59,598 nucleotides of DNA from a virus (IMGVR_UViG_3300034782_000053); one strand, 5' to 3'; counted from the stretch's first letter, positions 28,790-59,191 are shown. The notes: generated from the sequence alone by a model not told the origin. Translations and numbers: made by a program.

Positions 28790-29526
28790 TCCTCATCCTC
28801 CTGGTCAGAAAAATAGTCGAGAATGTAGTCGAGCTGCCATTGGTACTCGTTGCCGTAAGCTTTCTGGTCTCGCTCAGCCATACCCTGCTGCGTCGCTGAC
28901 TGCCTTGTATAAGACGCTGTGTCCTGCGAAAACTTCCGCACAAGCACGGGAGCTGGCCCGGCGAGCTGTGTATGTCCGTAGAGGTGAGCATGAAGAGCCT
29001 TCATCGCCTCTCGGACGGCAGTGGCGATCAGCTCATCGCTGTAGGCGATTCTGAAAGCCTTGTCTGCTTCAGAAACATCCTTGCGATGCTCGGCGAGTTT
29101 TACCTCCCCCCTTGCTCTTTCAAGCAAGCGATAAGCCTGTGAAGCCCTCGTTATATTTCCGGACATCATAATGATGTCTCTCAAAGCGAGTCTTTTTTCA
29201 GGAGAGTCCGAAAAATAGTCTTTTCCGTGATACCTCCCGAATCTCTCGATCGCATGGTCCGCTATGCCAATCGCCAACAGCACCCTATCCGCCTCAGGAA
29301 TGAGCAACGCCTCATTACTGAGAAGAGCCTTGACGGGCTCATCCTCGAACTCTCGGACGAGACTAAGGCAGTCCGACGCTGGATACCCCATCTCTTCGAG
29401 CGCGATGTCTTCTTCGAGGTCGTAGTCGAGGGTCAAATCGCCGTCATCGTCGACTTGGGCATCGACGATTTGGTCGTCGCATCGGGCAGCAAGTACGAAG
29501 GACACGAGTTCACCCCCATCGCTCAC
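28786..29526 (-). CDS. EMGY-domain family paralog 18 (246 aa)
   Basis: GTG start 29526 in a GTGA overlap with the VWA gene stop. ...LDYDLEEDIALEEMGYPASDC. Confidence 0.75.
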   Translation of the reverse strand: MSDGGELVSFVLAARCDDQIVDAQVDDDGDLTLDYDLEEDIALEEMGYPASDCLSLVREFEDEPVKALLSNEALLIPEADRVLLAIGIADHAIERFGRYHGKDYFSDSPEKRLALRDIIMMSGNITRASQAYRLLERARGEVKLAEHRKDVSEADKAFRIAYSDELIATAVREAMKALHAHLYGHTQLAGPAPVLVRKFSQDTASYTRQSATQQGMAERDQKAYGNEYQWQLDYILDYFSDQEDEE

Positions 29527-31256
29527 TTGCCAGAGGTGATGTAGATGACATCACCGAACGGTGGTATTCCGCCCCACCTCTCCATCTGCGCCTCATCGCT
29601 TCCGACGATACCGATAACAACCCGCATGTTGGGCGGCGGAGAGTCGGGCCAGAGAGTGCCACCGTCCGTCAGGACTACCATGATGTTCGGGCGGGGCTGC
29701 GAATGATAGGCAGCGTTCATCCCAACTGTCAGGTCTGTTCCGCCGCCGATCTTTGCCTCACTCAGATACTTCTGAATGTCAGACGGGTTAAAAATCCGAC
29801 CAGTCCACGAGACCGTCGTGTCCGTCGCGAAGACACTGACACCTATCGTCGAACCGAACTGCCTGACAATTTCTGCAACTTCTCCCATCGCCTGTTCGAG
29901 GAGCGTGTAATTCCCCTTCGCCTTGGCGCTGCCATCGTTGAACGCGGCGAACATCGAGGCGGAGACATCGATGATGATTGCCACCTCAGGCACAGGGTGA
30001 ACGAGGCCTGGGAGTAGAATGTCTTTCTGGTGCCATTGGCGCCGGCTCACGCGACGGCGAGAGAACTCGAAAGAACCTGCCACAAAGTTGATAGCGTTCG
30101 AGACAGCGCTTCGGAGCTGCTGCTGCCAATTCACCGCAGATGGCGAAAGCTCTTCTTCGGCCCACTGAACTATTGTCGAGCCCACGCCCGTTCCACGACC
30201 CGTAGCTGACTCCTCGATGACCTTGTCGGCCGTTTTTTTTCGGATGAAGTCCTCTTGCGATCGATCAACGAAGTCGTCGGGCTCATCCTCCCAGGGAGCC
30301 GGGATACCAGTTGCGGATGAACCACAATCGCCCTCTCCGACATGCGGCGTGGAGCTAGGCTCACCACCTGTGGTCTGCCCCTGCTCGACCTGCTCTCCCT
30401 CGTCGTACTTGTCTTCAGCGCTCTTACCTTCGCCTTCGCCTTCACCTTCGCCTTCTTCGAAATCACCTTCGCCCTCTACCGGCTGACCTCTCTCTCCTAC
30501 GCCTTCTTCTCCTTCTTGAGGCAGGCGAGGATCGTAAATGACATAAGGAGGTTTCGTCCCTGGAGGCCGCTCTCCTGTCCAGGGTTCTTCGTACTCATAG
30601 ACAATAACCGGATCCGGCGGAGGACCAACTGGCGGCGGCTCGTCTTCTTCTCCTTCTTGCGGCGGCTCGGGAGGCGGTTCTTTCCCAGGCTTCTTCACCT
30701 TGATGATGGTTCGCTTGTACACCTTGACGTCGCCGTCAGGCGTCTCACCGAAGACATCGCCCTTTGGAGCTTCGAGGAGCATTTCGTAATACTCCTCCGC
30801 CAGCAGCCCCTTTTCGAAGTTGAAGCTCTCTGGAGTGATCGGCTCGAATCCAGGAATCTCTTTGAGCCGTTTCACGAGCGTATCGTCAGAATGGATCTCC
30901 GCGTCTGCCGCGAAGTTCCAGACCTTCGCCAGATCGCGGGGCACGTTCAGTTTTCGGGCGCGCTCTCCGTGACGACGGAGCAGGTGCCACAGCTCATGCT
31001 CCATGACAGCCGCGCCAGCTTCGACACCTGCCCTGTCCAAAAACTCATCGTTGAAGTACATCCGCCAGCTCGAATCGACAGCCGCTGTCGGGATGCTTTT
31101 GTCGTGCACCATGCGAAGCGTCATCGCTGCTGTCGCGAGATAGGGCCGCTGCGATGCCCTGAGCAGAAAAAGGCGCGCTGCCCGCACCAGCTCATATGGG
31201 TCACCAGGGTTTCGCCCCCTTCGAGGCCTTCCTGGGTTGATCATTCGAATCGTCAT
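29523..31256 (-). CDS. VWA-domain protein with N-terminal HExxH metallopeptidase-like domain (DUF2201-type MoxR partner) and a Pro/Glu-rich linker
   Basis: MEHELWHLLRRH (HExxH). C-terminal VWA with MIDAS IIIDVSASM (DxSxS). Low-complexity linker PPPEPPQEGEEDEPPP...VIVYEYEEPW...GEGEGEGEG. Translationally coupled on both sides. Confidence 0.8.
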   Translation of the reverse strand: MTIRMINPGRPRRGRNPGDPYELVRAARLFLLRASQRPYLATAAMTLRMVHDKSIPTAAVDSSWRMYFNDEFLDRAGVEAGAAVMEHELWHLLRRHGERARKLNVPRDLAKVWNFAADAEIHSDDTLVKRLKEIPGFEPITPESFNFEKGLLAEEYYEMLLEAPKGDVFGETPDGDVKVYKRTIIKVKKPGKEPPPEPPQEGEEDEPPPVGPPPDPVIVYEYEEPWTGERPPGTKPPYVIYDPRLPQEGEEGVGERGQPVEGEGDFEEGEGEGEGEGKSAEDKYDEGEQVEQGQTTGGEPSSTPHVGEGDCGSSATGIPAPWEDEPDDFVDRSQEDFIRKKTADKVIEESATGRGTGVGSTIVQWAEEELSPSAVNWQQQLRSAVSNAINFVAGSFEFSRRRVSRRQWHQKDILLPGLVHPVPEVAIIIDVSASMFAAFNDGSAKAKGNYTLLEQAMGEVAEIVRQFGSTIGVSVFATDTTVSWTGRIFNPSDIQKYLSEAKIGGGTDLTVGMNAAYHSQPRPNIMVVLTDGGTLWPDSPPPNMRVVIGIVGSDEAQMERWGGIPPFGDVIYITSGK

Positions 31257-31993
31257 GGTGACGTCTCCTCATGGTATCGCTCGATGAAGTCGAGCGTGTG
31301 ATCGAGCTGCCACTTCTTCTCTTCCATCTCCGCCTTGTCAGGATCTTCGTTCTCCTGAATGGCCTTGTTCCTCACGGCCTCTTGTGCTTGCGAGCTGACC
31401 TCGAAGATGTACTTGAAAAAGTTCTTTTCGGCCTTTGCCCGAACCTTTGGTAGCGAGATGGCAACGAGCCACTCTGCAGCGTTGATGAGCTGAACGGCAC
31501 TTTTATTGGCGTGGTACGCAGCAGGTGGATGACCGACATACAGCCCTTGATCTCGAAGGTTTTTCCGAACCTTGTCGAGCATCATCGTTGTAAAACGACC
31601 CTCCAGCGAACCCTCTACCGCTCTCACGGCACTGTAAAACCAGGGGTGCTCAGCCTCCGCGAACATTTCAAAGTGCTGCTGCTGCCCGCGTTCAGAGAAT
31701 ACCCAATCGATGTGATGGACATAGTCAATCCCTAGCTGCACCCAGGCCTCGTATGGGAGAATGCCGACTCCGTAATCTTCCGTTGCCCAAAGCCCCCTCT
31801 GAAGCATCATGAGGACGTAGAGAGGCTTGGTGGGGTAGAAGTTGATAGCCTGGTAGCAGGGGCTACCGGAGTAACCCATCTCGACGAGAACGGCCTCCTC
31901 GTCGTAGTCAAAATCGAAGATGGTTAATCCACCGCGGTCTACTTCGACCTCGTGTACTCCACCTCCGCAGCGTATCTCCGTGACAATGGCCAT
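31253..31993 (-). CDS. EMGY-domain family paralog 19 (246 aa)
   Basis: MAIVTEIRCGGGVHEVEVDRGGLTIFDFDYDEEAVLVEMGYSGSPC. Sits between the VWA gene and the AAA+ ATPase genes. Confidence 0.8.
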   Translation of the reverse strand: MAIVTEIRCGGGVHEVEVDRGGLTIFDFDYDEEAVLVEMGYSGSPCYQAINFYPTKPLYVLMMLQRGLWATEDYGVGILPYEAWVQLGIDYVHHIDWVFSERGQQQHFEMFAEAEHPWFYSAVRAVEGSLEGRFTTMMLDKVRKNLRDQGLYVGHPPAAYHANKSAVQLINAAEWLVAISLPKVRAKAEKNFFKYIFEVSSQAQEAVRNKAIQENEDPDKAEMEEKKWQLDHTLDFIERYHEETSP

Positions 31994-31995: not shown

Positions 31996-33459
31996 CTACT
32001 TCTTTTTCTTCGCCAGACCCTTCAAGACGCCGACCTTTTTCATCATGGGGAAGAACTTCTTCACCAGGCGGCTCGGCGGCTTCGTGCCCTTGATCTGTGG
32101 ATAGCGATCACTCGTAGCGATCTTGGTCAGATCGAGGACCGTCGTAAACATTGCGTCGACCTTGTTTGTCTCGTCGACGACGTAACCGACGACATCCCAC
32201 GCCTGAAGGAAACGCTCTTCTGAGGGCTTTCGCTGTACCGCCGCGACGAGCGACTGACCGACAGCGTAGATCTGATCGCTGCGGGCGTTCTTCACGTCCC
32301 AGATGGTTGGATCGAGCATGACCTCTTCTGCGTCTGGCAGGTCTCTCTCCTTGATCCAGTTCATGAACTCGCCGCCTGGACCTTCACCCACGCACCCCTT
32401 GACAAGCAGCGCCTGAACGTCCATCGGAGCCCAGACAGCACGTCCTGCCCCGAGGGCTTCTGCCGCCATGTCCCAGGTTCGCGGGCTCGGCCACGCAAGG
32501 CCGCGCTCTGTCTGCGTCTTCGGCATCATCATGAAAAGCTCTTCACGACGACGAAGGAAGGCCGCAATATCCTCCTTGGCGCTCATGGCCTCTGAAGTCT
32601 TTCGCCAGTCCTTCGGAAGTGAGAACAAGCGAGGCCTGGCCCACCCGAGCATCAGACCGAGACCCCAGATGATCCCAGAGGGCTCTGGCCACTTGATGTG
32701 GAGCATCCGGTTTGCCGCTGGCGGCGGCAAGTCGATGGCTCCAGCACCCTCTCCAGACGGATTCGCGGCGGCGACGACACTGCATGCCTCTCCACGGAGC
32801 GGCCCGCTCTTCGGATCGAAGTTCAGCTCCCCAGCGATCTTCTCGCGCACCACCCGCAGCATAGCGGCATGAACGAGTGGGCTCATGCTCGTGAACTCGT
32901 CCAGGAACAGAACCGAGCGCTTACCCTGATCGGCCCTGGCCCTGATCTCCTGAGCCCAAACTGGTGGGACCAGCGAGCCATCGAGCTTCATGATGCCGCC
33001 GATGTCTGCCGGGTCTTTCGTCGAGCCAATAACGGTGAAGACCTCGGCATCCATCGCTTCGCCGAGAGCTTCCAGCCAGGTCGTTTTACCGATACCAGGA
33101 GCGCCCCACAAGATGGTTGGGACACCGGACTGGACGGCGATTGCAGCAGCCTGCTGTGCGATCTGAGCCTCACTCAGCTCATCGGGATTGCGAAGAATAC
33201 GGGAGCGCTTGACGAAGTAGATGCCGGCTCCAACACCAACGCCGATCCCAACCCAAAACCACCAGGGGCGTCCAGCAAATTGTCCGTCCTCAGGATTTTC
33301 TGTTCCGAGGTTACTACACCCTGCGCAGCTCGCAATCGGAGAGTCGTCGTCGTATATGGGTACGATAGCCCCCATCTGCGGGGGTATGACCTGCTGGGCA
33401 GTGAGCGGAGGGCGAACTGCTACGTAGCGCCCATCATCGTTGTCGTCTCGATAGTTCAT
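31996..33459 (-). CDS. MoxR-like AAA+ ATPase (AAA_5 type) with N-terminal TM segment
   Basis: Walker A LWGAPGIGKTT, Walker B VLFLDEF, sensor AAAN. N-terminal hydrophobic WWFWVGIGVGVGAGIYFV. ATGA coupling to the upstream ATPase. Confidence 0.85.
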   Translation of the reverse strand: MNYRDDNDDGRYVAVRPPLTAQQVIPPQMGAIVPIYDDDSPIASCAGCSNLGTENPEDGQFAGRPWWFWVGIGVGVGAGIYFVKRSRILRNPDELSEAQIAQQAAAIAVQSGVPTILWGAPGIGKTTWLEALGEAMDAEVFTVIGSTKDPADIGGIMKLDGSLVPPVWAQEIRARADQGKRSVLFLDEFTSMSPLVHAAMLRVVREKIAGELNFDPKSGPLRGEACSVVAAANPSGEGAGAIDLPPPAANRMLHIKWPEPSGIIWGLGLMLGWARPRLFSLPKDWRKTSEAMSAKEDIAAFLRRREELFMMMPKTQTERGLAWPSPRTWDMAAEALGAGRAVWAPMDVQALLVKGCVGEGPGGEFMNWIKERDLPDAEEVMLDPTIWDVKNARSDQIYAVGQSLVAAVQRKPSEERFLQAWDVVGYVVDETNKVDAMFTTVLDLTKIATSDRYPQIKGTKPPSRLVKKFFPMMKKVGVLKGLAKKKK

Positions 33460-35036
33460 CGTAGACCTCCGAAGACTCGAACACCCTCGACGCGATACTC
33501 ATCGAGCATTTCGTCTTCGGGAATCTCCGCGTCCTTGATGGCTGCCACGAAGCGCTTGTCTTTGGTCAAGGCCATCAGCCTGTCGGCCGCGAGCGCCAGC
33601 ACCTCTGGCCTGTCAGACTTCGCCCTGGCGTGCTCCATGAACTCCCAAGCCCGCTCCCAGGCATCCCGCGACGGCGACTTCTTGACCTCGTTTACGACAG
33701 CGTTTGCGGCGGCATAGAGGACGTCAGGACGACCTAGCTGCACCTCATATTTCTTGGGAGCTGCGAGAATGTCTCGTCCATCAACAGCGTCTCGGTCGTT
33801 GAGCCAATCGAAGAACTTCTTGGCTGGCAGCATCCCGACCGCACCAGAGACAAGCTTGAAGATGACCTGGGGAGGAGCGTTGACGACTCGGGCGGCGCCC
33901 AGAGCGTCCGCAGCCATCTCCCAGCTCCTGGGGCTCGGCCATGCCTCGCCTCTTGCTGCCGATGTCGCAGGCAGTTCCAGCATGTACCTCTGCTGATAGG
34001 CGACGAAAGCCGCGACGTCTTCCTCTGCGCTGACAGCCTCACGAGTCCTCTTCCAGTCTCTCGGGAGTGCCGGGAGCTGAGGCTTTGGCCACTCCGAAGA
34101 AAGAAGCCCCACTCCCCACTCCACAACAGAAGGCGGCACCCACTTGATATGAATGAGCCGGTTAGCGGCCGGAGGAGGAAGCTCCATCGAGCCTGCACCT
34201 TCCTCGGGGGCGTTCGCGGCGGCGACAACTGAGACATACCTGTCAGTGGGGTCGAAGTTCAGCTCTCCGGCGATCTTTTCCCGAACGACTCGAAGCAGCG
34301 CGGCGTGCACGAGCGGGCTCATGCTCGTGAACTCGTCCAGGAACAGAACCGAGCGCTTTCGCTGGTCCGAACGCTTGCGAATCTTCTGAGCCCACATGGG
34401 CGGGATCGTTCTGCCTTCGAGATTCATGATGCCGCCAATGTCGGCTGGATCCTTGGTTGAGCCGATGACCGTAAAGACCTCGGCGTTCATCGCTTCGCCG
34501 AGGGCTTCCAGCCAGCTCGACTTCCCTATTCCAGGAGGCCCCCAAAGGATGGTGGGAAGCCCTGCCTGCACTGCGAGTGCAGCGGCCTGCTGAGCCGCCT
34601 CGGAATCGGTGACGTCCCTGGGGTTTTCGAAGATGCCGCTTTTTGTAAGCAAGTAGAGCGCACCGCCCACACCAAGGCCGATTCCAACCCAGAACAGCCA
34701 GGAGTGTCCTGTCCTTTCCTCGACTCCGACGTTAGAGAGAGCCGAGTTCTGACATCCGACGCAGCATTCTTCGATCGATGGATCGCAGCTCCCAACGAGC
34801 TGAGACCTCGTCCTCTGGACGATTCCAGGTCCAAATCGATACACCTTCGCACCGGAGGGCTGGATAGCCCCCATCCCGTCAAAGAGCTGAGCTTCGGAGG
34901 GCTGGATGGCTCCCATGCCGCTGAAGAGCTGAGCCTCTGAGGGCTGAATCGCGCCAAGGCCCTGGCTGAAGATCTGAGCACGCGACAGGTTTATGAGACC
35001 CAGCGGCTGTCGACCTTTTGTGTTGTACTCGTACAT
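33456..35036 (-). CDS. MoxR-like AAA+ ATPase paralog with N-terminal MYEY tag, 15-aa x3 tandem repeat and TM segment
   Basis: Starts MYEYNTKGRQ. Repeat EAQLF.GMGAIQPS x3. Walker A LWGPPGIGKSS, Walker B VLFLDEF. GGAGGA SD. Confidence 0.85.
   Translation of the reverse strand: MYEYNTKGRQPLGLINLSRAQIFSQGLGAIQPSEAQLFSGMGAIQPSEAQLFDGMGAIQPSGAKVYRFGPGIVQRTRSQLVGSCDPSIEECCVGCQNSALSNVGVEERTGHSWLFWVGIGLGVGGALYLLTKSGIFENPRDVTDSEAAQQAAALAVQAGLPTILWGPPGIGKSSWLEALGEAMNAEVFTVIGSTKDPADIGGIMNLEGRTIPPMWAQKIRKRSDQRKRSVLFLDEFTSMSPLVHAALLRVVREKIAGELNFDPTDRYVSVVAAANAPEEGAGSMELPPPAANRLIHIKWVPPSVVEWGVGLLSSEWPKPQLPALPRDWKRTREAVSAEEDVAAFVAYQQRYMLELPATSAARGEAWPSPRSWEMAADALGAARVVNAPPQVIFKLVSGAVGMLPAKKFFDWLNDRDAVDGRDILAAPKKYEVQLGRPDVLYAAANAVVNEVKKSPSRDAWERAWEFMEHARAKSDRPEVLALAADRLMALTKDKRFVAAIKDAEIPEDEMLDEYRVEGVRVFGGLR
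34850..34990. repeat. 45-bp tandem repeat x3 inside the AAA+ ATPase gene (encodes EAQLF.GMGAIQPS x3)
   Basis: gagggctggatagcccccatcccgtcaaagagctgagcttcg / gagggctggatggctcccatgccgctgaagagctgagcctct / gagggctgaatcgcgccaaggccctggctgaagatctgagc. Confidence 0.8.
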
Positions 35037-35047
35037 GAGTCCTCCGG

Positions 35048-35589: not shown

Positions 35590-36117
35590 TTACCAGCTAC
35601 CGGACACCGTCAACGCAGGTGCGTCATCAGCGAACTCCACCACAAAAACACCTATCGACACGGCGTATGCACAAATATCTATCAGCTTCTTGCTGTAACC
35701 AACTTTCTTCCTTACCCCTCGAAGCTCTTCAAAGAATCCATCTTCATCTGGGATACTTACGAGATACCCTCTTTGAATTGTTTGCACCTCAAACCAGGTG
35801 TCATAGTTCAGCGCTTTACGGTCGTTCTCTTCTCTTTCGAGCGTAAACCGATCCGACGGTTTTATGCTTTCGATTGAAACCGTTAGAACAGCGTAAGAGG
35901 CCTCCATACTTTCTGGAAGAAACCCGTTGTCTCTGTAGAAAGAATAAGGCTCGTTAACGAGCTGATGCCACAGCGTGTAGCACTCCGTCGGGTCGTAACC
36001 CATCTCGACGAGCGTGATGTCGTGCTCAATATCGTAGTTGAGAAACTCAGGACCCTCAGGCGTCAGCCGGATACGAATGGGGCGTCCCTCACATTCGACT
36101 TCAATGACCGGGGTCAT
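35590..36117 (-). CDS. EMGY-domain family paralog 21 (175 aa)
   Basis: Internal ATG 36117 adjacent to the upstream stop. MTPVIEVECEGRPIRIRLTPEGPEFLNYDIEHDITLVEMGYDPTEC. Confidence 0.8.
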   Translation of the reverse strand: MTPVIEVECEGRPIRIRLTPEGPEFLNYDIEHDITLVEMGYDPTECYTLWHQLVNEPYSFYRDNGFLPESMEASYAVLTVSIESIKPSDRFTLEREENDRKALNYDTWFEVQTIQRGYLVSIPDEDGFFEELRGVRKKVGYSKKLIDICAYAVSIGVFVVEFADDAPALTVSGSW

Positions 36118-36377
36118 CTCGACCTCAGGATGTAGCCGATGACCATCCCCGTGATGGCTCCCCACGCCACGAGATCGCATCGTCTCCGCACGTACCACGG
36201 GCGCTGGCTTTCTCGCACCCGGGCCAGCTCTTGATTTGCGACTGCCTGCGCCGGATGCTGATGCAGCGCCGCCTCTTGCTGACCTATGACGACAGCGTAT
36301 TGCTCCACGAACGGTTCGAGCGTCGCCGGGTCTGAGAGCGGCATCTGGTTCGGCATATTGGCGTCAGGGCTCTGCAT
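36114..36377 (-). CDS. small protein with C-terminal hydrophobic anchor (87 aa)
   Basis: ATG 36377. C-terminal LVAWGAITGMVIGYILRSR. Confidence 0.55.
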   Translation of the reverse strand: MQSPDANMPNQMPLSDPATLEPFVEQYAVVIGQQEAALHQHPAQAVANQELARVRESQRPWYVRRRCDLVAWGAITGMVIGYILRSR

Positions 36378-36780: not shown

Positions 36781-37137
36781 CTACTCCTCGGACTCTTCGC
36801 CCTCGCCACGCTTGATGAGCCACCAAATGCCTCCGCCAACGAGTGTGAGAATACCAACGCCAGCTACACCGTAGACCCACATTGGCATCCCTGGGGCTCC
36901 TGGCTCATCAAGGGCGTAAGTATCTGTTGTGCTCTGCTGCTCGGGATCGGGGAGCACGATGTCGCCTCTTTCGATGGCTTGTATTACGCCGCGAACGCCG
37001 GGGCTCGAAATCAAGCTCGTCGCCTGAAGAGTCCCTGGACCTACAGTGCTGATACCCCCCCGATCTTGGACCGATGCGATAACTGACCCAAGGCCGCACC
37101 CAAGACACCCGGCCCCTGCTGTGCTCTGCTGATACAT
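36781..37137 (-). CDS. tail-anchored membrane protein, CxxC subfamily (MYQQSTAGAGCLGCGLG), 118 aa
   Basis: C-terminal PGMPMWVYGVAGVGILTLVGGGIWWLIKRGEGEESEE. Confidence 0.75.
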   Translation of the reverse strand: MYQQSTAGAGCLGCGLGSVIASVQDRGGISTVGPGTLQATSLISSPGVRGVIQAIERGDIVLPDPEQQSTTDTYALDEPGAPGMPMWVYGVAGVGILTLVGGGIWWLIKRGEGEESEE

Positions 37138-37449: not shown

Positions 37450-37731
37450 CTACTCCTCCTCGGATTCGCCGCGTTTCATCCACCACCAGACACCACCACC
37501 GATGGCCCCGAGTATTGCCACGCCTCCGACGCCCCAAACCCACCACGGGAGCCCCTCCTCATGCTCGAAACCACCAGGCTCCGGGTGAGGGATGTCTTCC
37601 TCTCCAGCCTCGGCAGCAGCACGAGCCGCCTGTTGCTGAGCAGCGAATTCCGGATCGATCGATGAAATCTGTGGCCCGATGTTGAGAAGAACGGGCTCGC
37701 TTCCCATTCCGTGAGGGTTGTACTCGTACAT
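37450..37731 (-). CDS. MYEY-family tail-anchored membrane protein (94 aa)
   Basis: ATG 37731-37729 in a TGATG overlap. MYEYNPHGMG...GLPWWVWGVGGVAILGAIGGGVWWWMKRGESEEE. Confidence 0.75.
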   Translation of the reverse strand: MYEYNPHGMGSEPVLLNIGPQISSIDPEFAAQQQAARAAAEAGEEDIPHPEPGGFEHEEGLPWWVWGVGGVAILGAIGGGVWWWMKRGESEEE

Positions 37732-38159
37732 CACTCCTCCTCCGCGGCTCGCCTTCTCTTGACGAGCCACCAAATACCGCCGCCAACCAGAGAGAGGAGG
37801 ACGACACCGCCAATCCCCATGACGATCATCCCAGTTCGCTGCTCTGCCTCGGCCTGTTGACGCATTAGTCGCTCTTGCGTCGCCTGGCGACCAGACTCCC
37901 ATTCAGCCTGATCCGCGGCCTGCTGAGCTTCTTGCCGCGCCAGGTGTTCTTGTCGTCGCTGCTCTTTCTGCTGCTCTGAAGCTGCAGTAAGGGCCTCGGC
38001 CATCACCTGGAACCCTTGCGGGTTCTCCTGCATGAGCTGCGATGCATGAGCCGCCAGCGCGGCACCACCTTCGAGACGCCGGCCTATCATTCCGATTACG
38101 CCGAGACCGCTCTCCTCACAGCCCAGGCAGCCAGCGCCCGACCTGTTCGACTCGTACAT
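37731..38159 (-). CDS. tail-anchored membrane protein, CxxC subfamily (MYESNRSGAGCLGCEESGLG) with Gln/Ala-rich coiled segment, 142 aa
   Basis: C-terminal IVMGIGGVVLLSLVGGGIWWLVKRRRAAEEE. Confidence 0.75.
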   Translation of the reverse strand: MYESNRSGAGCLGCEESGLGVIGMIGRRLEGGAALAAHASQLMQENPQGFQVMAEALTAASEQQKEQRRQEHLARQEAQQAADQAEWESGRQATQERLMRQQAEAEQRTGMIVMGIGGVVLLSLVGGGIWWLVKRRRAAEEE

Positions 38160-39622: not shown

Positions 39623-40225
39623 CTATTCTTCGCCCTCACGAGCTTTCTTACGCTTGCGGAGCCACGTCCAGAACAGGGCGCCTCCACCAACAGCAAGGGT
39701 GATGATCGCAAACGCCTTGATCGGTCGCTCTCGCCGCTCTCGTTCTTCGATGACCTGAAGAAACTCGGCCGGCTTGACAAGCCTCCTTCGCCAACCGGTT
39801 ATGCCAGCGACGTCAAGAACCTTCTCGCTCATGGCCTCACGGAACCCCGGAGACGCGATGAGATCAGCGCCCTCTTGTAGCCACTGCTCTCTCCATTCAG
39901 CGCAGCGGCGCTCACGCCACGGATCCCGCTGATGTGCCCCCTGATGTACTTCGGGAGGACACTCCGTTGAAGCATTGCAGGAGCAGATGAAGTTGTGCCC
40001 CGGTACGGAAATCTCCATGGTGTACGGAACAGACGACCGAAGCACTTCTTCACGCGGAGCATTGTGGTAACAGCGACAGTTGACGTTTTCCAGAGAGACC
40101 TCAGCGATCGCCCAAGGAGCTACGCGCCTGGTCTCGCTAAAAGGAATGTAGCGATCGCCAAGCGCACCGAGCGCCGTAGGGTATGGCTTGGTCGAAACAC
40201 TTTTTCCGGTGTTGTATTCGTACAT
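39623..40225 (-). CDS. MYEY-family tail-anchored membrane protein (200 aa), Cys-rich
   Basis: ATG 40225 gives MYEYNTGKS. Positions 40231-40226 are TTG-ATC. C-terminal AFAIITLAVGGGALFWTWLRKRKKAREGEE. Confidence 0.75.
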   Translation of the reverse strand: MYEYNTGKSVSTKPYPTALGALGDRYIPFSETRRVAPWAIAEVSLENVNCRCYHNAPREEVLRSSVPYTMEISVPGHNFICSCNASTECPPEVHQGAHQRDPWRERRCAEWREQWLQEGADLIASPGFREAMSEKVLDVAGITGWRRRLVKPAEFLQVIEERERRERPIKAFAIITLAVGGGALFWTWLRKRKKAREGEE

Positions 40226-40227: not shown

Positions 40228-41688
40228 TCAACTCTCCGTCGGTGCGATCAGCTTATAGATCGCAAACGCCCCGACCGCTGCTGCGCCTACGCCAAACGCG
40301 AGAACTCCGATGCTTGGGCCTCGCCGACCCAGTCTTCGAGGCGCCGGCCGTGGCTTCAGGCGATCGCCAAATGTGATCGGCTGAAGAATCGGAAGCATCA
40401 TCGGACCAAGCACTGTCGACTGAGCCCTCGCCTCCGCACCGCGCGGCTCGCCATCCATCTTTGTCATGACTGGAACGTAGGGAAACTCATCGTGCATCTC
40501 GACGAGCATGGCCCTCATCTGCCAGAAGGAGACAAAGCGCATGAAGGGCCACCACTCGAATGGCACATCCATGGGCTCGTATTCTTTACCCTTCCTCATC
40601 TGTCCCAGGACATCGATCGCCGTCTCTGTCACCCCGGCTTCTCTGAGAATCTCTCGAAATCTCTCTCCACCCAGCTTTCGGCCGTAGACCCAGACATCGT
40701 GCATCATCCACACGATGGACGCGTACCAACGAGAACCTCGACGACGTCTTTGATCGTGAACGTCGTCCTCGCCTACAGCCGGCATGCCTTCGAGCACGTC
40801 CTCCATGCACTCCATGGTGCGGCAAAGGATCTGATCCAGTTCCATCCAAGCGAGGATGTTGTGAACTTTCCAAGAACGGGCGAAATATGTCCCCGCCGGG
40901 CATGTCCACGGTTCCGACATGCTCTTAACAATTTCGTCTGTAGATGGGTTAGAACCACCCCACCCCAGGTATAGTCTTCTTCCGTTAGCAGTAAGTGGCG
41001 CGTATTTACTGTTTGTCCGCCAGCGCTCTATGCACCAGGCATTCGCTGCAGTTTTCCCTATAACTCTCCCGTCACCGAGGAATAGCTGGGGCATTCTGAG
41101 GGCATTCGCCCCTCGAACCTGTCCAGCCGAAACAGGCTCTGCCTCCATCACATCAACGTCGAGGCCCTCAACAATCAGGCCGTCATGGAAGTACTTGATA
41201 AAGGAGCAGCGGTGGCTCTTGTAGTCGCACCCGCAATCGCTCTTGTTAGTCCATTTGGACTCATTCCCAGGATGAAGCCCAACGAGCGCTTGCAAGTGCC
41301 GTGTGTAATTCCTTCTGTCGTAGCTTGTATCCCTGTCATATCCGCCACAGTGATACTTGTCGCACTCGATGTAGAATAGCTTGGCGAACCACCTGACGAT
41401 GGCGCCGATCGCCGCTAGCACGACGCCGATGATGGTTCCTACACCTGGGATGATAGCGATGGCCGCGCCGATCCCCATCAGCGCGTTACCAACAGCATCT
41501 GTAGTGGCCTCGTTCTCGTCGTCCGAAGCTGTGGCATTGGCAGCCATCTCGGCCATCGCCGTCGAGACCGTCTCGCTGCCGCTGTCCATGTACTCCTGGG
41601 TAGCGAAAGGGCTCATCCCAGCCTCTCGGCACAGGCCATAAAAATCCAACCACATCAACGTGGTTGTTGTTCGAGCACGCATCGTCAT
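40228..41688 (-). CDS. large bitopic membrane protein (486 aa; N-terminal TM + C-terminal TM), paralog of 41685..43058
   Basis: MTMRARTTTTLMWLDFYGLCREAGMSPFATQEYMD...CDKYHCGGYDR...LCRTMECMEDVL. ATGA coupling. Confidence 0.8.
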   Translation of the reverse strand: MTMRARTTTTLMWLDFYGLCREAGMSPFATQEYMDSGSETVSTAMAEMAANATASDDENEATTDAVGNALMGIGAAIAIIPGVGTIIGVVLAAIGAIVRWFAKLFYIECDKYHCGGYDRDTSYDRRNYTRHLQALVGLHPGNESKWTNKSDCGCDYKSHRCSFIKYFHDGLIVEGLDVDVMEAEPVSAGQVRGANALRMPQLFLGDGRVIGKTAANAWCIERWRTNSKYAPLTANGRRLYLGWGGSNPSTDEIVKSMSEPWTCPAGTYFARSWKVHNILAWMELDQILCRTMECMEDVLEGMPAVGEDDVHDQRRRRGSRWYASIVWMMHDVWVYGRKLGGERFREILREAGVTETAIDVLGQMRKGKEYEPMDVPFEWWPFMRFVSFWQMRAMLVEMHDEFPYVPVMTKMDGEPRGAEARAQSTVLGPMMLPILQPITFGDRLKPRPAPRRLGRRGPSIGVLAFGVGAAAVGAFAIYKLIAPTES

Positions 41689-43058
41689 GACGTCACCAGC
41701 TTATATACCGCGAAGGCGCCGATTGCCGCCGCACCAGCTCCAAACGCGATTGTTCCCAACCCAGGACCACGGGGACCGACGTGGGCTGGGACAGGCTGCA
41801 TGTTGCGGTTGAACTTCACTGCCGTGCGGATCGGAATCAGCATCGGAGCGAGCGTTACTGTTCGAACGCGCGCCTCCTCACCTTCTGGAGCGGCCTGACC
41901 AACGGGCGGCTCGTAGGGGAAGAGCGGCTTCATCTTGATGAGCAGGTCACGGAGCTGCCACCAGGAGAAATGGTAGAGGAAGGGCCACCATTGAAATGGC
42001 ATTTGCTCGGGGGGATAAACGTGTCCATCGCGCATCTTATGAAGATCAGCGATGACGGTATCATTCGCCCCGACCTCGCGCGACAACCTCTCGAACTCAC
42101 TCCATCCGAGCTTCTTTCCCGTCTCCCAAACGTCGTTCATCATCCAGACAATCGACGCATACCAGCGGGATCCCCTTCGACGCTTCTGATTGCCGGAGCT
42201 ATCACCCTCGACACTTGTTGTGTTCAGAAGCACATCTTCCATACACTCCATCGTCCTGCAAAGGATGTGCTCCTGCATCCACCAGAGGACCGCATGGACC
42301 CTGAAAGATCGGCCGTAATAGCTATCAATGGAATTTTCCCATGGGTCGCTTCTGCTTCCCGTTGAAATAGCGTTTCCATCTTCTTTCAGCGGCTTGTAGT
42401 CGGCGTGGTCTCGCCAGTATCTCTCACAGCCTTCGTTGTACCCCCGGCCGTAACCGTTGACACCACGCACTCGGCCTGCCGTCGTGGGCTGAGCATCTGT
42501 TTGATCGAGGTCTATGCCATTGACCATGAGCCCGTCATGCATGTATCGAATGAACGAGCACTCGTGGCTTCGGAGCTTGCACCGGCAGTTACTTTCTGCA
42601 TCTGTCGCGCTTTTAGACGCCCGAGTCAGATTCACTCCAACAAGTGCTTGCTGGTGCTGCGCATATCGACGCCTTCGCGTCTTCGTGTTTCTGTCATACC
42701 CACCGCAGTGATACTTGTCGCACTCGACATAGAAGAGCTTGGCGAACCACTTGACGATGGCGCCAATTGCTGCAATCACAATACCCACGACCGCGCCGAT
42801 GACGGACTCACCTGCGACTGCAACAATTCCGGCTCCAATGGCCATCATCGCATCGCCTACGGCATCGGTGACCGCCTCGCTTTCAGCATCCTCGGCCCCT
42901 GCGTTCGCAGCCATCTCGGCCATCGCACCGTTGACGGTATCGCTCCCTTCGTCCATATACTGCTGAGTGGCGAAAGGGCTCATCCCCGCTTCCCTGCAAA
43001 GGCCATAGAAATCGAGCCAGGTCAGCGTTTTCTTTGTGCGATCCTTGGTAAAAGCCAT
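41685..43058 (-). CDS. large bitopic membrane protein (457 aa), paralog of 40228..41688
   Basis: Internal ATG 43058 with GGAGAG SD. MAFTKDRTKKTLTWLDFYGLCREAGMSPFATQQYMD...CDKYHCGGYDR. Confidence 0.75.
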   Translation of the reverse strand: MAFTKDRTKKTLTWLDFYGLCREAGMSPFATQQYMDEGSDTVNGAMAEMAANAGAEDAESEAVTDAVGDAMMAIGAGIVAVAGESVIGAVVGIVIAAIGAIVKWFAKLFYVECDKYHCGGYDRNTKTRRRRYAQHQQALVGVNLTRASKSATDAESNCRCKLRSHECSFIRYMHDGLMVNGIDLDQTDAQPTTAGRVRGVNGYGRGYNEGCERYWRDHADYKPLKEDGNAISTGSRSDPWENSIDSYYGRSFRVHAVLWWMQEHILCRTMECMEDVLLNTTSVEGDSSGNQKRRRGSRWYASIVWMMNDVWETGKKLGWSEFERLSREVGANDTVIADLHKMRDGHVYPPEQMPFQWWPFLYHFSWWQLRDLLIKMKPLFPYEPPVGQAAPEGEEARVRTVTLAPMLIPIRTAVKFNRNMQPVPAHVGPRGPGLGTIAFGAGAAAIGAFAVYKLVTS

Positions 43059-43071
43059 CAGAACTCTCCGT

Positions 43072-43611
43072 CTACAGCTCGCCTCGATAATATGCGCCGT
43101 ACCAGTGAAGCACCTCGAAGCCGACAAAAACACCAGCAGCGAGCAAGAAGACTGGAAGCATCCACAAAGATGCTCCAGCAGGCTGCTCACCATTCGAGCC
43201 GAGCCCAGCCATTACTGGTGGAAAGGGTGACCCGACAAAAAGAGCATCACCAGGACAGCACCATTCCTGGCTCGGAGCCCGAGCGGACCCTCCACAGCGG
43301 CGCCCGGTTGCGACGCACCCTTGCTGCATGAGACCTTCCTCTTGAGGACCGATTTCAGGTGGCCAGCCACGCCCGGTCTCCAACCCCTTCTCGCCATAAG
43401 GAGCACCAACACACACGCTTCGACCACCACTGACCTCGCTGCAAGAACCTGGTCCCGGAGGACGCTGTCCAGGCTTCGTATACATTGGGCCAAACGTAGC
43501 GCCGCCGCCGGGGCCACCCGGTGCATAGAGGCCGGCACCATAGGCAAACTGGCCACGCTCCCACACAGGAACGTCTCCCACAGGACTGTATTCGTATGCT
43601 TCGTAGGTCAT
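43072..43611 (-). CDS. MYEY-like tail-anchored membrane protein (MTYEAYEYSPVG), Gly/Pro-rich, 179 aa
   Basis: C-terminal WMLPVFLLAAGVFVGFEVLHWYGAYYRGEL. Confidence 0.7.
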   Translation of the reverse strand: MTYEAYEYSPVGDVPVWERGQFAYGAGLYAPGGPGGGATFGPMYTKPGQRPPGPGSCSEVSGGRSVCVGAPYGEKGLETGRGWPPEIGPQEEGLMQQGCVATGRRCGGSARAPSQEWCCPGDALFVGSPFPPVMAGLGSNGEQPAGASLWMLPVFLLAAGVFVGFEVLHWYGAYYRGEL

Positions 43612-47041: not shown

Positions 47042-47424
47042 CACATACCCCAGTATTCGTGGGCCTGCTCTTCCATCAGGTCCAACCGCTCGTAGTAGTC
47101 TGGAAATTCATTGAGGTGCGCCCAGGCAATCTTCCCCGTAATGAGAAGGTCGTCTCCGGTCACGTCCGTTCTCGGATCGGCGCCCCCATGCTCCATCTCG
47201 ACAATGATTCCACGGGCGAATTGATCGACAGAAAACGGAGCGGTTCGCCAATCTATACCAATCGCCTCGCCTACTCGCCGAGCGACCTTGCGGGTTGCGC
47301 GACGGCGATTTGCCTCGGGACTGGTGTCCTTAATGATATTCCATAGCAGCAAAACACCGCCGCCCATGATTATCAGGGCTGCAACGAACCTGCCCGTCTC
47401 ATCACTGCCGTTACCGTTATTCAT
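47041..47424 (-). CDS. N-terminally anchored small membrane protein (MNNGNGSDETGRFVAALIIMGGGVLLLW), 127 aa
   Basis: ATG 47424 (TGATG overlap). Confidence 0.7.
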   Translation of the reverse strand: MNNGNGSDETGRFVAALIIMGGGVLLLWNIIKDTSPEANRRRATRKVARRVGEAIGIDWRTAPFSVDQFARGIIVEMEHGGADPRTDVTGDDLLITGKIAWAHLNEFPDYYERLDLMEEQAHEYWGM

Positions 47425-47912
47425 CAAGCAGCTCCGAGCGCCTCGCTGAACTCGCGTCCGAGACGGCGCTTGTAGGCAGCCTTATACGAAGCGCTCCTCT
47501 TGTAGGCGCGCTGATACACCTTGTTCAGGTAGGCGACGGCCTTGTAGATGCTTCCCGTCAGCGTCCCTCTCGAAAGGATGAACTCGGGCAGGTCGCTTGT
47601 GACTCGAATACGGTCGTACCTTTCGGGTGGAAAGGCACGGAACGACCGCCCAGTACCTCTGACGATGGTCCCGATGAGATCCTCTGACTTTCCGGTGGGC
47701 CGCATCGCGTAGACAGCGTACATGCCCTCTGGAAGGCCGTCTTTGCGAACCATGAGGAGGTTCCCATCGATCTCGAAGATCTGACCGCCAGGGTTCGAGG
47801 TCATGCGCCGCTTCTGGAGCAGCGTCATGCCGACAAAGCCCAACACCAGGCCACCGGCTGCATACATCCAGCCGTTGCTGCAATTCCCATTGGCGCAATT
47901 CTCGATGTTCAT
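47424..47912 (-). CDS. N-terminally anchored membrane protein with basic Tyr/Lys-rich C-terminus, 162 aa
   Basis: ATG 47912 with AGGAGA SD. MNIENCANGNCSNGWMYAAGGLVLGFVGMTLL. Confidence 0.65.
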   Translation of the reverse strand: MNIENCANGNCSNGWMYAAGGLVLGFVGMTLLQKRRMTSNPGGQIFEIDGNLLMVRKDGLPEGMYAVYAMRPTGKSEDLIGTIVRGTGRSFRAFPPERYDRIRVTSDLPEFILSRGTLTGSIYKAVAYLNKVYQRAYKRSASYKAAYKRRLGREFSEALGAA

Positions 47913-47920
47913 AACATCTC

Positions 47921-49947: not shown

Positions 49948-49950
49948 CAC

Positions 49951-50475
49951 CTACCTCGTTTTCCAGTACCAGACCGCCCCACCGATACCGAGACCCAAAA
50001 CTCCCAGCACCGCGACGGCTCCCCATGGGAAGCCGCCCGGCTGCTCAGCGGGCAGTGCCTCTTCTGCTGGCGCAGCAGTTTCAGCAGTTTCCTGCGGAGT
50101 GACCTCAAGCTCAGTCGGCATCATCAAGGTCATCTGTTGAATGGCCTGCGGGCAGCAGTACCAGGACATCCCATCTTCCATGCACTGAAGGGAGCATCCT
50201 CTTTCGCGCATTTCGTTTTCAAGAGCGAGCGCGGCCACCGCATCGCTGTAGTCGGGTCGAACGCCTTCTCGAACTGTGCCATCGGGGCAACCTACCCCGC
50301 TGCATGCTTGTTCGCGAATAGCCGCTATCCTCTCCTGGCGACCTTCACGAAGACGACGAAAAGCTGCCACGCCATTCGACGATGTCGTCTCAGTTGCTTG
50401 CTTGAGAAAAGCCGGTCCAAAGAAAGCAGAAATCGTCTCACCCGCACCCATCCCCGTCATGTACTCATACGCCAT
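49951..50475 (-). CDS. MYEY-family tail-anchored membrane protein (174 aa)
   Basis: MAYEYMTGMG... C-terminal GGFPWGAVAVLGVLGLGIGGAVWYWKTR. Confidence 0.8.
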   Translation of the reverse strand: MAYEYMTGMGAGETISAFFGPAFLKQATETTSSNGVAAFRRLREGRQERIAAIREQACSGVGCPDGTVREGVRPDYSDAVAALALENEMRERGCSLQCMEDGMSWYCCPQAIQQMTLMMPTELEVTPQETAETAAPAEEALPAEQPGGFPWGAVAVLGVLGLGIGGAVWYWKTR

Positions 50476-51291: not shown

Positions 51292-51295
51292 CACC

Positions 51296-52984: not shown

Positions 52985-52993
52985 GCCGTCCCC

Positions 52994-57532: not shown

Positions 57533-59191
57533 TTAACGGGTTCTCTTTTGCATGAGCTTTTTGAAGATCGCATTAGCGCGGCTGTTAGCAATGAACCCCC
57601 TTTCCCTCGCACTTAGCTCAGTTTTCCAGCGATCGTCTACGGAGATATCTTCTCTCTTGTGCGCCTTGGGATTTCCACCGACCGCATGATACTCGACCGC
57701 TGCGTAGTCCTTCTCCTCCGGCAGCTCACCAGGGATTCCAAGAGCCTTGCGAACTTTTTCTGTCATTCCCCAGGGATCTTCAGCCAACTCTTCGTAGTTA
57801 ACAAAGAGAAGCCGACGACAGTACTGAGGCGCCCAACGAAGCATACCGTCGTACATTCCAGCATAGCCGGCGACGGCCTGCTCGACCGTCTGACCTTCGT
57901 TTCTCATGTCGCTGAGAGCTGCCGCCTCCGGCCGCTTGAACAAAACAATGCCATCAACATTGTTTCTGGCGCAGCACTGGCTGTAATGACCCGTCAGCTT
58001 GTCAGAGACAACAAGAGTGTCCACCCCCATCCTCTCCGCAACCTCACGGTAGAGATCCTTCTTTTTCGGGGGGCTGGCGATGAAGCTCTCGCTGAAAACA
58101 CGGCACTTCTCTCCGCATTTTACGCACCTACGAGTGACGGGCCATCCAGCTTTCGTCTTCACGTCACCAATGAGCGGTGCATCATGGACCCAGTGCAGCT
58201 CTCCCGCTGCGCCGACACCGTCGATAGCCGCCATCAGACGGCTGAGTAAAGTGCTCCCGCAAAAGCTTCTACCGATGATTCCGATGATCCGCGGCCCCTC
58301 GACGCATTCACCAAAGCTGTCTACGGGTTTGAGGTTATCCTTGAAGCTCTGGGTCTCGTCCCCCTCTACGCAATCGATCTCAGGCACCTCTTCTTCGAGG
58401 TTGTGTCCACAGGCGTTCCACAGGGGCGCGTTTTTCAGGTGCCACTTGTTGTAAAAGATCTGACATGAGCGCCAAATCATCTCCGATGACCACCGGTCTT
58501 GGTTGTACTCAGCATTTGTACAAATATGCTTGTGATGTACACATGTGGGGTTCATCATATGAGCGTACTGAACACCCGCCATCCACATCTGATATGCGAA
58601 GTCAATATTCTCTCCAGAAACAAAATATCGTGGGTCTGGGCAGATGCCCCTTTTGAATGTTTCTACAGGAATAACAGTCACACCCATGCCAGAATAATCG
58701 CAGATTTCGTAGTTGGCAAAACCGCTAAGCTTCCGTGTTGCGTGAGTTCCGTTATAAAAAACCAATTGGCCATTTTCTTTACGAAACAATCTGGACGGAA
58801 TATCACCAGGAGAGATAAACCCAGCACCTACATCGAACTCTCCTCTCTTCCGCTCAGCCTCGATTGCCCTGATGAGCAAGTCCCATCCCCACTTGGGGAT
58901 CGTGATGTCGTCATCGACCTTGGCCCACCACGGACTCTCAAGACGCTCGATGCTCTCGTGAAGCGGCAAAGACAGACCAACGTTCTTCTCTTTATGATCA
59001 ACGACCAGCTCGAACTTGAACTCGCTCGCCCTTGGAAGAGAAATACCTTTTTGAAGGGGACCCTGGACAACCAGCTCGACACGGTGAGGCTTCTTGGTTG
59101 CAAACTCCAGGGCGCCGAGGGTATTGAGCAGGCAGTTTAGCGGCCGTCTCGGATGGTAGAGAACGATTGTCGTCAAGAAAGGCTGTGCCAT
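57533..59191 (-). CDS. bifunctional protein: N-terminal GT2-like glycosyltransferase domain + C-terminal sulfotransferase-like domain
   Basis: N-terminal TIVLYH...VDDDITIP. C-terminal IIGIIGRSFCGSTLLSRLM (PAPS-binding 5'PSB-like loop, compare Sulfotransfer_3 PRSGTTLL) and later LFKRPEAAALS (3'PB-like). ATG 59191. Confidence 0.6.
   Translation of the reverse strand: MAQPFLTTIVLYHPRRPLNCLLNTLGALEFATKKPHRVELVVQGPLQKGISLPRASEFKFELVVDHKEKNVGLSLPLHESIERLESPWWAKVDDDITIPKWGWDLLIRAIEAERKRGEFDVGAGFISPGDIPSRLFRKENGQLVFYNGTHATRKLSGFANYEICDYSGMGVTVIPVETFKRGICPDPRYFVSGENIDFAYQMWMAGVQYAHMMNPTCVHHKHICTNAEYNQDRWSSEMIWRSCQIFYNKWHLKNAPLWNACGHNLEEEVPEIDCVEGDETQSFKDNLKPVDSFGECVEGPRIIGIIGRSFCGSTLLSRLMAAIDGVGAAGELHWVHDAPLIGDVKTKAGWPVTRRCVKCGEKCRVFSESFIASPPKKKDLYREVAERMGVDTLVVSDKLTGHYSQCCARNNVDGIVLFKRPEAAALSDMRNEGQTVEQAVAGYAGMYDGMLRWAPQYCRRLLFVNYEELAEDPWGMTEKVRKALGIPGELPEEKDYAAVEYHAVGGNPKAHKREDISVDDRWKTELSARERGFIANSRANAIFKKLMQKRTR

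Follow-up and report, generated by a model that had tools for sequence, protein, structure and literature searches.

A membrane-anchored MoxR-class ATPase and the N-terminal tag it shares with neighboring single-pass proteins in a probable phage-like element

INTRODUCTION

Why would a MoxR-class AAA+ ATPase begin with the same short peptide as the small membrane proteins encoded beside it? This question is raised by a locus on the minus strand of the viral sequence IMGVR_UViG_3300034782_000053, of which a stretch of 59,598 nucleotides (hereafter the window) was analyzed. MoxR ATPases are widespread, few have known clients, and the cellular ones (RavA, NorQ, CbbQ) are soluble proteins; to our knowledge, MoxR ATPases in general have been described as soluble. 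The ATPase studied here, which we call ATPase 1, shares its N-terminal signature with about 11 co-encoded single-pass proteins, so that the likely clients may be named by the genome itself, and the sharing of this tag provides a testable handle on the function of MoxR ATPases paired with von Willebrand factor A (vWA) proteins.

RESULTS

An intact ATPase core preceded by an additional module

33456..35036, minus strand: membrane-anchored MoxR-class AAA+ ATPase 1, 526 amino acids (aa) (open reading frame, Pfam AAA_5, PHROG 1297, structural matches)
34518..34541, minus strand: Walker A, GPPGIGKS, residues 166-173, with G166, P168, G169, G171 and K172 invariant
34329..34346, minus strand: Walker B, LFLDEF, residues 231-236, with L231 to F236 invariant

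The open reading frame at 33456..35036 encodes a 526-aa product whose N-terminus reads MYEYNTKGRQ. The AAA+ core named in the initial annotation was recovered by Pfam AAA_5, which scored 36.3 bits (cut-off 22, E 7e-9), and by Pfam AAA (31.7 bits against 21.2). Besides the Walker motifs, it has conserved sensor and arginine positions, and K172, D234, E235, N275, R293 and R370 are invariant in 43 aligned sequences. Pfam AAA_3, which is MoxR proper, stayed below its cut-off (22.2 bits against 27), as did PF20030, the bpMoxR family (18.4 bits against 27). The best Foldseek matches in the PDB were RavA (6q7l, E 7e-7), CHU_0153 (2r44) and NorQ (9qh*), with modest TM-scores of 0.32-0.49, and Vps4, FtsH and p97 ranked weaker than the MoxR class. 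ATPase 1 also matched PHROG 1297 (‘ATPase’) at 1.7e-42, while a PDB sequence search returned only weak P-loop matches to midasin. The closest relatives without an extension (356-365 aa) have their first residue right at the AAA+ core, so the whole difference is an N-terminal module of about 140 residues. In ATPase 1, these residues are added to an intact MoxR-class AAA+ core.

The translation start lies at MYEY

35040..35045, minus strand: Shine-Dalgarno (SD) sequence GGAGGA, 4 nt 5′ of the ATG (direct sequence reading)

Translation of ATPase 1 starts at MYEY, as had been claimed. The ATG at 35036 is the earliest start codon downstream of an in-frame stop and is preceded by GGAGGA, just 5′ of which the preceding gene ends with its TAA at 35050-35048. 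None of the in-frame ATG, GTG or TTG codons before the ATPase core (aa 41, 55, 65, 123 and 129) has an SD-like sequence upstream, and an Rfam scan of the N-terminal region gave no family match; a wrong start or a non-coding repeat was ruled out on these three grounds. One could still argue that the N-terminal extension is an annotation artefact and that the true start lies near the ATPase core, as the non-extended relatives begin there and one homologue, P0002, has been called from an internal Met. However, no internal start carries an SD, the amino acids of the tail are kept in about 60 homologues, with some residues invariant, the substitution pattern described below favors translation, and no Rfam element is present in the region. 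From these sequence features, we regard the artefact as so improbable that it is effectively refuted.

A constrained, disordered tail with tandem repeats

34995..35036, minus strand: N-terminal tag MYEYNTKGRQPLGL (M-Y-E-Y ... G-φ), residues 1-14 (invariant residues, enrichment, synonymous codons)
34809..34982, minus strand: four tandem aromatic-Gly units (15, 14, 14 and a degenerate 15 aa), residues 19-76 (Tandem Repeats Finder, translation)
34982-34938, minus strand: repeat unit c1, RAQIFSQGLGAIQPS, 15 aa by translation
34937-34896, minus strand: repeat unit c2, EAQLFSGMGAIQPS, 14 aa by translation
34895-34854, minus strand: repeat unit c3, EAQLFDGMGAIQPS, 14 aa by translation
34853-34809, minus strand: repeat unit c4, GAKVYRFGPGIVQRT, degenerate, by translation
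34752..34775, minus strand: juxtamembrane Cys motif IEECCVGC, residues 88-95 (consensus I-E-x-C-x-x-G-x-C), with I88, C91, G94 and C95 invariant
34641..34700, minus strand: Trp/Gly-rich transmembrane (TM) helix, residues 113-132 (AlphaFold2, conservation, charge bias)
34620..34625, minus strand: N-P dipeptide, N138 and P139, between helix and core (invariant in 43 sequences and 15 tails)

The tail consists of the tag, the repeats and the Cys motif, and is followed by the helix. The tandem feature and its coordinates had been correctly reported, although the description as three 15-aa copies of 45 bp was slightly off, since only c1 measures 15 aa among the regular units; Tandem Repeats Finder gave a 42-bp period with 2.2 copies (score 132) at 34853-34946. 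The units of ATPase 1 follow φ-F-x-G-φ-G-x-I-x-P-S, and the motif recurs as φ-[FY]-x-G-φ-G-x-[IV]-x-P-[SA] in homologues, in which its copy number, counted by eye, varies from none to four. In an AlphaFold2 model built with 43 homologues, residues 1-110 are disordered (predicted local distance difference test below 50), residues 113-132 (WLFWVGIGLGVGGALYLL) form a helix, and the AAA+ core with its helical lid is confident from about 144 to about 500.

Across 15 aligned tails, M1, Y2, E3, G13, G26, G40, I58, I88, C91, G94, C95, W113, G120, G125, N138 and P139 are invariant. The codons of the tag differ synonymously between loci (ATGTACGAGTAC in the window; ATGTATGAATAT, ATGTACGAATAC and ATGTACGAGTAT at related loci; TAC/TAT and GAG/GAA), which shows that selection acts on the tag peptide and not on an RNA or DNA signal, and a nucleotide-level signal at the start of ATPase 1 was ruled out for the same reason. 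Units c2 and c3 differ at six codons, five of them synonymously and one non-synonymously. Together, the codon variation in the tag and this 5:1 ratio indicate that the tail is translated and constrained.

The same tag opens the single-pass proteins of the neighboring clusters

38159-37731, minus strand: tagged small single-pass gene, start MYES
37731-37450, minus strand: tagged small single-pass gene, start MYEY
37446-37159, minus strand: tagged small single-pass gene, start MYQA
37137-36781, minus strand: tagged small single-pass gene, start MYQQ
36767-36381, minus strand: tagged small single-pass gene, start MYEYMTGLG
39623..40225, minus strand: tagged 200-aa single-pass protein, start MYEYNTGK (17 homologues)
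54361-52994, minus strand: distal tagged single-pass protein, start MTYEYMTGLG
52177-51296, minus strand: distal tagged single-pass protein, start MYEYMTGMG
50475-49951, minus strand: distal tagged single-pass protein, start MAYEYMTGMG
49947-49204, minus strand: distal tagged single-pass protein, start MSYEYMTGLG

The same tag, generalized as M-Y-[EI]-[YF]...G-φ-G, stands at the head of each single-pass protein in the neighboring clusters, and 11 single-pass proteins of the window start with it when ATPase 1 is counted. In its strict form, M(x)YE[YF], it begins 8 of the 62 curated genes of the window (binomial 5.6e-18) and, with six related loci included, 20 of 204 genes (3e-42). Each of the 11 true carriers in the window has a single, Gly-rich TM helix. 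In the tagged proteins other than the ATPase, this helix is close to the C-terminus, with K/R and then acidic residues behind it. The family of 39623..40225 comprises 17 homologues, all metagenomic, that open with MYEY or MYIY, and further variants in related elements are MSEY, MSYE and MQHYNDGIFGS. The spacing to G-φ-G varies, from 2 to 13 residues past YEY. According to the methionine-aminopeptidase rule, Tyr at position 2 should leave the initiator Met in place.

The Joint Genome Institute (JGI) gene calls (L001) shorten 36781-37137 to 77 instead of 118 aa and 37731-38159 to 119 instead of 142 aa, thereby dropping the MYQQ and MYES starts; the longer forms are supported by the conservation of MYQ.ST.G.GCLGCGLG between the paralogues. 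The proteins within 49204-54361, as well as one at 5906-6163 of the related locus L030, have Cys-rich N-domains with an aromatic-C-C-P motif (EWCCPKH, TWCCALE, WYCCPQA, IYCCPPD and VWCCPGD).

The anchor cassette is kept in a clade of extended homologues

Among 5.8 billion proteins searched, about 60 relatives of approximately 500 aa had an N-terminal extension, all metagenomic, one of them on a 4.7-kb contig labeled Planctomycetota (a metagenome-assembled genome, MAG). Essentially all 61 extended homologues have the cassette made of I-E-x-C-x-x-G-x-C, R-P-W-W-x-W, a Gly-rich helix, K/R and the invariant N-P, and in the 43-sequence alignment P-W-W and G120/G122 are conserved at ≥90%. The proposed TM helix before the ATPase core was confirmed by both the AlphaFold2 helix at 113-132 and its retention in essentially all of the approximately 60 extended homologues. 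A start of the MYE[YFL] type is present in 23 of the 61, which bears out the earlier suggestion that tag and membrane anchoring are common to ATPase 1 and the MYEY family: the likeness is conserved and not a coincidence. Some homologues have other N-termini, such as DDGRYV and VGRQEQAL.

When the cassette profile was run against 1.84 billion representative proteins, it matched seven: five ATPases of the same clade, P0138 (a frameshifted gene call, with the MYEY tag and repeats at residue 175) and P0139 (a junk repeat protein). In another metagenome protein, P0053, a VGQQEAAL module lies upstream of and in frame with MYEH, which may be a genuine module fusion or a mis-called start. The cassette (IENCANGNC, TM helix, KRRMTSNP) also heads an unrelated 170-aa protein at 47424-47936 on the minus strand, and likewise at L030 1177-1650, so the anchor cassette is mobile between different cytoplasmic domains.

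Tail and small proteins share an architecture

36114..36377, minus strand: 87-aa single-pass protein, fused to the ATPase N-terminus in other elements (BLAST)

The initial annotation also held that the shared tag links the ATPase module physically to the MYEY family, a claim that stands for the tag, the CxxC motif and the Trp/Gly-rich helix and is not supported for family homology. BLAST of the ATPase tail against the small proteins detected no significant overall similarity. The only matches, short and weak, fell on the tag, CxxC motif and TM helix, and overall homology was rejected on that basis. As the likeness is limited to these three elements, what can be claimed is a shared cassette or architecture, homology not being demonstrated. 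Within each element, the tag of the ATPase resembles those of its neighbors: in L038, the ATPase (P0051, starting MQHYNDGIFGS) and its upstream neighbor (starting MMRHYNDGIFGS) have a common cassette of tag, TM helix and N-P, and their C-terminal domains differ.

The product of 36114..36377 matched the N-termini of the ATPase homologues P0021 (E 1e-6) and P0029, and its orthologue in L030, encoded directly upstream of the ATPase, matched P0021, P0023, P0013, P0024 and P0020. Judged from these alignments, the relation between this small protein and the ATPase N-termini is one of splitting or fusion.

Charge and cysteine content suggest an N-out topology

Since the ATPase must face ATP, the segment after the helix would be cytoplasmic and the tail would lie on the other side. 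The charge distribution is consistent with this: in 61 ATPases, the 15 residues before and after the helix contain on average 1.16 and 2.28 K+R, and in 35 tagged single-pass proteins 1.26 and 3.0. Cysteine makes up 2.65% of the ATPase tails and 0.41% of the cytosolic parts, and in the tagged proteins 2.18% before and 0.44% after the TM helix. Of the 21 tagged proteins that contain Cys, 20 have an even number of them, in keeping with extracytoplasmic domains joined by disulfides. These biases suggest that the ATPases and all tagged proteins are N-out/C-in.

By simple inspection, no Sec, Tat or lipoprotein signal peptide was found in the tagged proteins, which have no RR and no lipobox context; their N-termini have zero or one K/R in the first 8 residues, and the maximal 10-residue hydropathy within the first 35 aa is 0.14-1.93. 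The charge bias and the Cys content, which place the tail across the membrane, make it unlikely that the repeats serve as a flexible substrate-binding arm in the direct sense that had been suggested, because from there they could not feed the ATPase ring. A binding role for such a disordered and constrained arm is plausible on the trans side only.

A probably coupled paralogue and a metallopeptidase-vWA partner

31996..33459, minus strand: membrane-anchored MoxR ATPase 2, 487 aa (52% identity over 417 aa with ATPase 1)
31253..31993, minus strand: conserved ‘EMGY-domain’ gene, 246 aa, separating ATPase 2 from the vWA gene (synteny with L030 and L036; member of a set of at least 17 paralogues)
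29523..31256, minus strand: metallopeptidase-vWA partner, DUF2201_N plus DUF2201/VWA_2 (Pfam, PHROG 1314, HELWH, DVSAS)

ATPase 1 is followed by a second ATPase, and the 52% identity between the two runs from residue 85 onward. ATPase 2 begins with MNYRDDNDD and retains the TM helix, a CAGC motif and one degenerate repeat unit (AQQVIPPQMGAIVPI). That it has no tag, as had been noted, is true of the window only, since both paralogues of L030 start with MYEY. The stop of ATPase 1 and the start of ATPase 2 overlap as ATGA at 33456-33459, and 8 nt upstream the final codons of ATPase 1 contain GGAGG, which suggests that the two genes are translationally coupled and their products made in about equimolar amounts. 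Tandem ATPases are also found in L030 and L033. The C-termini are distinct and conserved by paralogue class, ...EGVxVF in one and Lys-rich in the other.

Two genes downstream of the ATPase pair, 29523..31256 matched DUF2201_N (4.4e-25) and DUF2201 (1.9e-11) in Pfam and PHROG 1314 at 5e-36. Its translation has both HELWH and the DVSAS metal ion-dependent adhesion site (MIDAS) motif intact, and neither a signal peptide nor a TM helix was found in this protein. The pairing of MoxR and vWA genes is kept in six related loci, and in L030, L033, L036, L037 and L038 the order is small TM genes, one or two ATPases, an EMGY gene, the metallopeptidase-vWA gene and further EMGY paralogues. The N4-like phage KPP21 has the identical order of ATPase, small gene and phrog_1314 gene.

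At least 17 EMGY paralogues of 240-560 aa are encoded between 12179 and 36198 on the minus strand, flanking both ATPases and the vWA gene. Their only common part is an N-domain of some 60 residues, in which L-x-E-M-G-Y is invariant and two Cys positions are conserved; the C-terminal parts are unrelated. AlphaFold2 predicts this domain confidently (66 residues, three strands plus helices); Foldseek found no PDB match for it (best E 1.5), and Pfam gave only a weak DUF5983 match.

Comparison with known systems

The pair of a MoxR ATPase and a metallopeptidase-vWA protein has been described in group 2.2 jumbo phages by Iyer et al. 2021, who suggest, from the analogous tail-assembly pair of Acidianus two-tailed virus, that it serves virion assembly accompanied by proteolytic processing (PMC7824862). 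The same two families are present here, as the PHROG 1297 and PHROG 1314 matches demonstrate, and in KPP21 a small gene likewise lies between the ATPase (ORF076) and the vWA-peptidase (ORF078). However, the phage ATPases, to which tblastn identity is approximately 25%, have about 356 aa and start at the AAA+ core, whereas about 140 residues comprising the tag, repeats, Cys motif and TM helix are added here. Unlike in the phage module, the ATPase is tandemly duplicated and is surrounded by genes for about 11 tagged single-pass proteins and for 17 or more EMGY paralogues. The core module is thus already known from phages; the anchor, the tag, the repeats and the tagged protein set appear undescribed, and a literature search on DUF2201 with MoxR, on membrane-anchored MoxR proteins and on DUF5983/DUF5661 found nothing relevant.

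The cellular pairs RavA-ViaA, NorQ-NorD and CbbQ-CbbO also combine an AAA_5-type core with an adjacent vWA protein bearing a MIDAS, and the logic of a ring ATPase acting on a client through a vWA adaptor is likely common to them and the present pair. They differ from it in that the ATPase here has its own TM anchor and ecto-tail, its partner has an N-terminal zinc peptidase, and AAA_3 is below cut-off. An N-terminal TM helix followed by a cytoplasmic AAA+ ring is also found in Msp1/ATAD1, Bcs1 and FtsH, and extraction, translocation or quality control would be possible by analogy, the ATPase genes standing here beside genes for C-terminally anchored single-pass proteins. Nevertheless, those proteins belong to a different AAA+ clade, ATPase 1 has no protease or Bcs1-specific domain, and the shared part is architecture only.

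MoxR and vWA proteins are likewise combined in the bpMoxR and vWA-MoxR ternary conflict systems (Kaur et al. 2020, PMC7159879), and the nearest non-extended relatives in the databases carry PF20030. In contrast to those systems, ATPase 1 itself is under the PF20030 cut-off, the VMAP, beta-propeller and effector architecture is missing, and PADLOC gave no system match. Neither the six neighboring genes (Pfam) nor the Pfam-annotated homologous loci include a VMAP, beta-propeller or effector partner. Membership in a defense system was rejected, as PADLOC returned only weak P-loop matches, NCBIfam nothing meaningful and bpMoxR a score below cut-off. The capsid-targeting sequence of phage T4 is comparable as a short conserved N-terminal peptide on otherwise unrelated proteins, encoded beside a dedicated peptidase, although the carriers here are all single-pass membrane proteins and the sequence is unrelated.

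DISCUSSION

A proposed membrane-tethered chaperone for the tagged proteins

We propose, tentatively and at somewhat less than an even chance, that ATPase 1 is part of a membrane-tethered chaperone for the tagged membrane proteins of a phage-like replicon, with ATPases and clients in N-out topology. By analogy, the two coupled paralogues would form a mixed ring beneath the membrane, held there by their Gly-rich helices, and the soluble metallopeptidase-vWA protein would dock on this ring as a co-chaperone, as in other MoxR-vWA pairs. Ring and vWA-peptidase could then act together on the tagged single-pass proteins that the element itself encodes, in their remodeling, assembly or processing. The short cytoplasmic tails of these proteins, K/R followed by oligo-Glu, would be plausible ligands of the vWA MIDAS site. 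On the trans side, the tag and repeats may act as multivalent short binding motifs that keep the ATPase in the assembly of its clients.

As phage families include both its MoxR and its metallopeptidase-vWA genes, the element is probably a phage or phage-like replicon, large and uncultivated. Hardly any of the window can be annotated. The minus strand bears all but one of its recognizable genes, GC skew is negative in every 2-kb interval except one, and no tRNA genes were found in it. Related elements lie on metagenome contigs of 143-270 kb (P0001, P0013, P0023, P0035 and P0046) that are almost without Pfam or PHROG matches.

Several observations weigh against the chaperone proposal. Its function is argued by analogy from NorQD, CbbQO, RavA-ViaA and the phage pair, and just one ATPase is encoded at three of the six related loci, which means that a mixed ring is not obligatory. 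The Kyte-Doolittle hydrophobicity of the helix is modest (0.9-1.9) because of its Gly-richness, and pre-TM domains of up to 408 aa without a signal peptide are hard to square with an N-out orientation. The even Cys counts could mean metal sites instead of disulfides, and some large viruses form disulfides in the cytoplasm. As for the phage-like nature, no capsid, terminase or portal was found among 19 window proteins searched against PHROGs or 16 against Pfam, no close relative of the ATPase among 185,579 GTDB species genomes (one irrelevant Treponema match), and none in IMG/VR, where only phage ATPases at about 25% identity were retrieved.

Other explanations of the shared tag

The tag could also be functionless, with anchoring alone being important: the ATPase N-terminus would derive from recombination or gene conversion with a neighboring small membrane-protein gene, and tag and repeats would persist through shared ancestry and local homogenization. 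Likeness within elements (MYEYN in the window; MQHYNDGIFGS and MMRHYNDGIFGS in L038) suggests as much, as do N-terminal modules that swap between ATPases and split from or fuse with small genes, and a repeat copy number that varies as slippage predicts. We nevertheless consider this unlikely, although deserving of real weight, as the tag has been kept while the rest of the proteins diverged past BLAST recognition, has survived synonymous changes across elements whose ATPases are 40-50% identical, and is followed by repeat copies whose 5:1 ratio indicates purifying selection and not drift. Slightly less probable still is a tag that serves as an export or sorting signal, read by a machine of which the anchored ATPases are part and in which the MoxR ring and the vWA-peptidase drive translocation, insertion or extraction like Bcs1 or Msp1; the ATPase would carry the tag because it uses the same route. 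The tag is the sole common N-terminal feature of these proteins and is under amino-acid-level selection, no Sec, Tat or lipoprotein signal is present even though charge and Cys suggest exported N-domains of up to 408 aa, and an N-terminal TM helix followed by an AAA+ domain is established for Bcs1 and Msp1. However, threading or translocation of substrates is not known for the MoxR class, the structural matches are to RavA, MoxR and NorQ and not to Bcs1 or Msp1, the topology is itself inferred, only one ATPase is present at three related loci, and some homologues begin with DDGRYV or VGRQEQAL. Taken to its full extent, with M-Y-[EI]-[YF]...G-φ-G as an unrecognized signal-peptide substitute for Cys-rich N-out proteins and ATPases, and MoxR-vWA as the insertion or assembly machine of a new phage-like lineage, the idea is similarly far from probable. 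The signal-peptide-less N-out proteins are nonetheless the part that could prove categorically new, and confirmation of their orientation would point to an unknown insertion or export route.

A cleaved propeptide, removed by the DUF2201_N zinc peptidase after delivery by the vWA domain and the ATPases, has a small probability in our view. The phage T4 prohead protease removes N-terminal capsid-targeting sequences in this manner, the tag is a short N-terminal stretch with small residues (G-φ-G) after it, and the vWA partner carries a fused metallopeptidase whose HExxH is intact. Processing of structural proteins has been proposed for the phage pair by Iyer et al. (PMC7824862). Yet the peptidase, having no signal peptide or TM helix, would be cytoplasmic while the tag is placed on the trans side, and cleavage spacing is not conserved, as G-φ-G follows YEY by 2 to 13 residues. 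A role of Y-E-Y as a tyrosine-modification site, for example for sulfation, is highly improbable. Glu-flanked tyrosines resemble known sulfation sites, and the candidate enzyme at 57533..59191 has a weak Sulfotransfer_3 match (E 1.3e-5) and a phosphosulfate-binding (PSB)-like GRSFCGSTLL motif; on the other hand, that match, at 26 bits, is under the Pfam cut-off of 27, the N-terminal half is glycosyltransferase-like and points to a glycan, the gene is more than 20 kb away, and the tag variant MYIY has no acidic residue.

Other genes of the window

Besides the tagged proteins and the ATPase module, a few other genes of the window were characterized. The gene at 57533-59191 (minus strand) encodes 552 aa, with a GT-A glycosyltransferase-like N-terminal half (DDD motif) and a sulfotransferase-like C-terminal half, and its product could modify glycans or Tyr-rich tags. 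The sole clearly annotatable gene, an N6/N4 DNA methylase at 10486-12231, is among the few plus-strand candidates. Its homologues cover just 20-40% of the gene, which has approximately 350 extra N-terminal residues, and many relatives have intein or homing-endonuclease domains. The homologues are mobile (for example, in Myxococcota MAGs) and uninformative on the host. Finally, two tandem paralogues of 486 and 502 aa at 40228-43193 (minus strand) gave no database match. Each has a pair of hydrophobic helices at its center, a TM helix at its C-terminus and the conserved motifs CDKYHCGGYDR and CRTMECMEDV, and orthologues are present in L030, L033, L036, L037 and L038.

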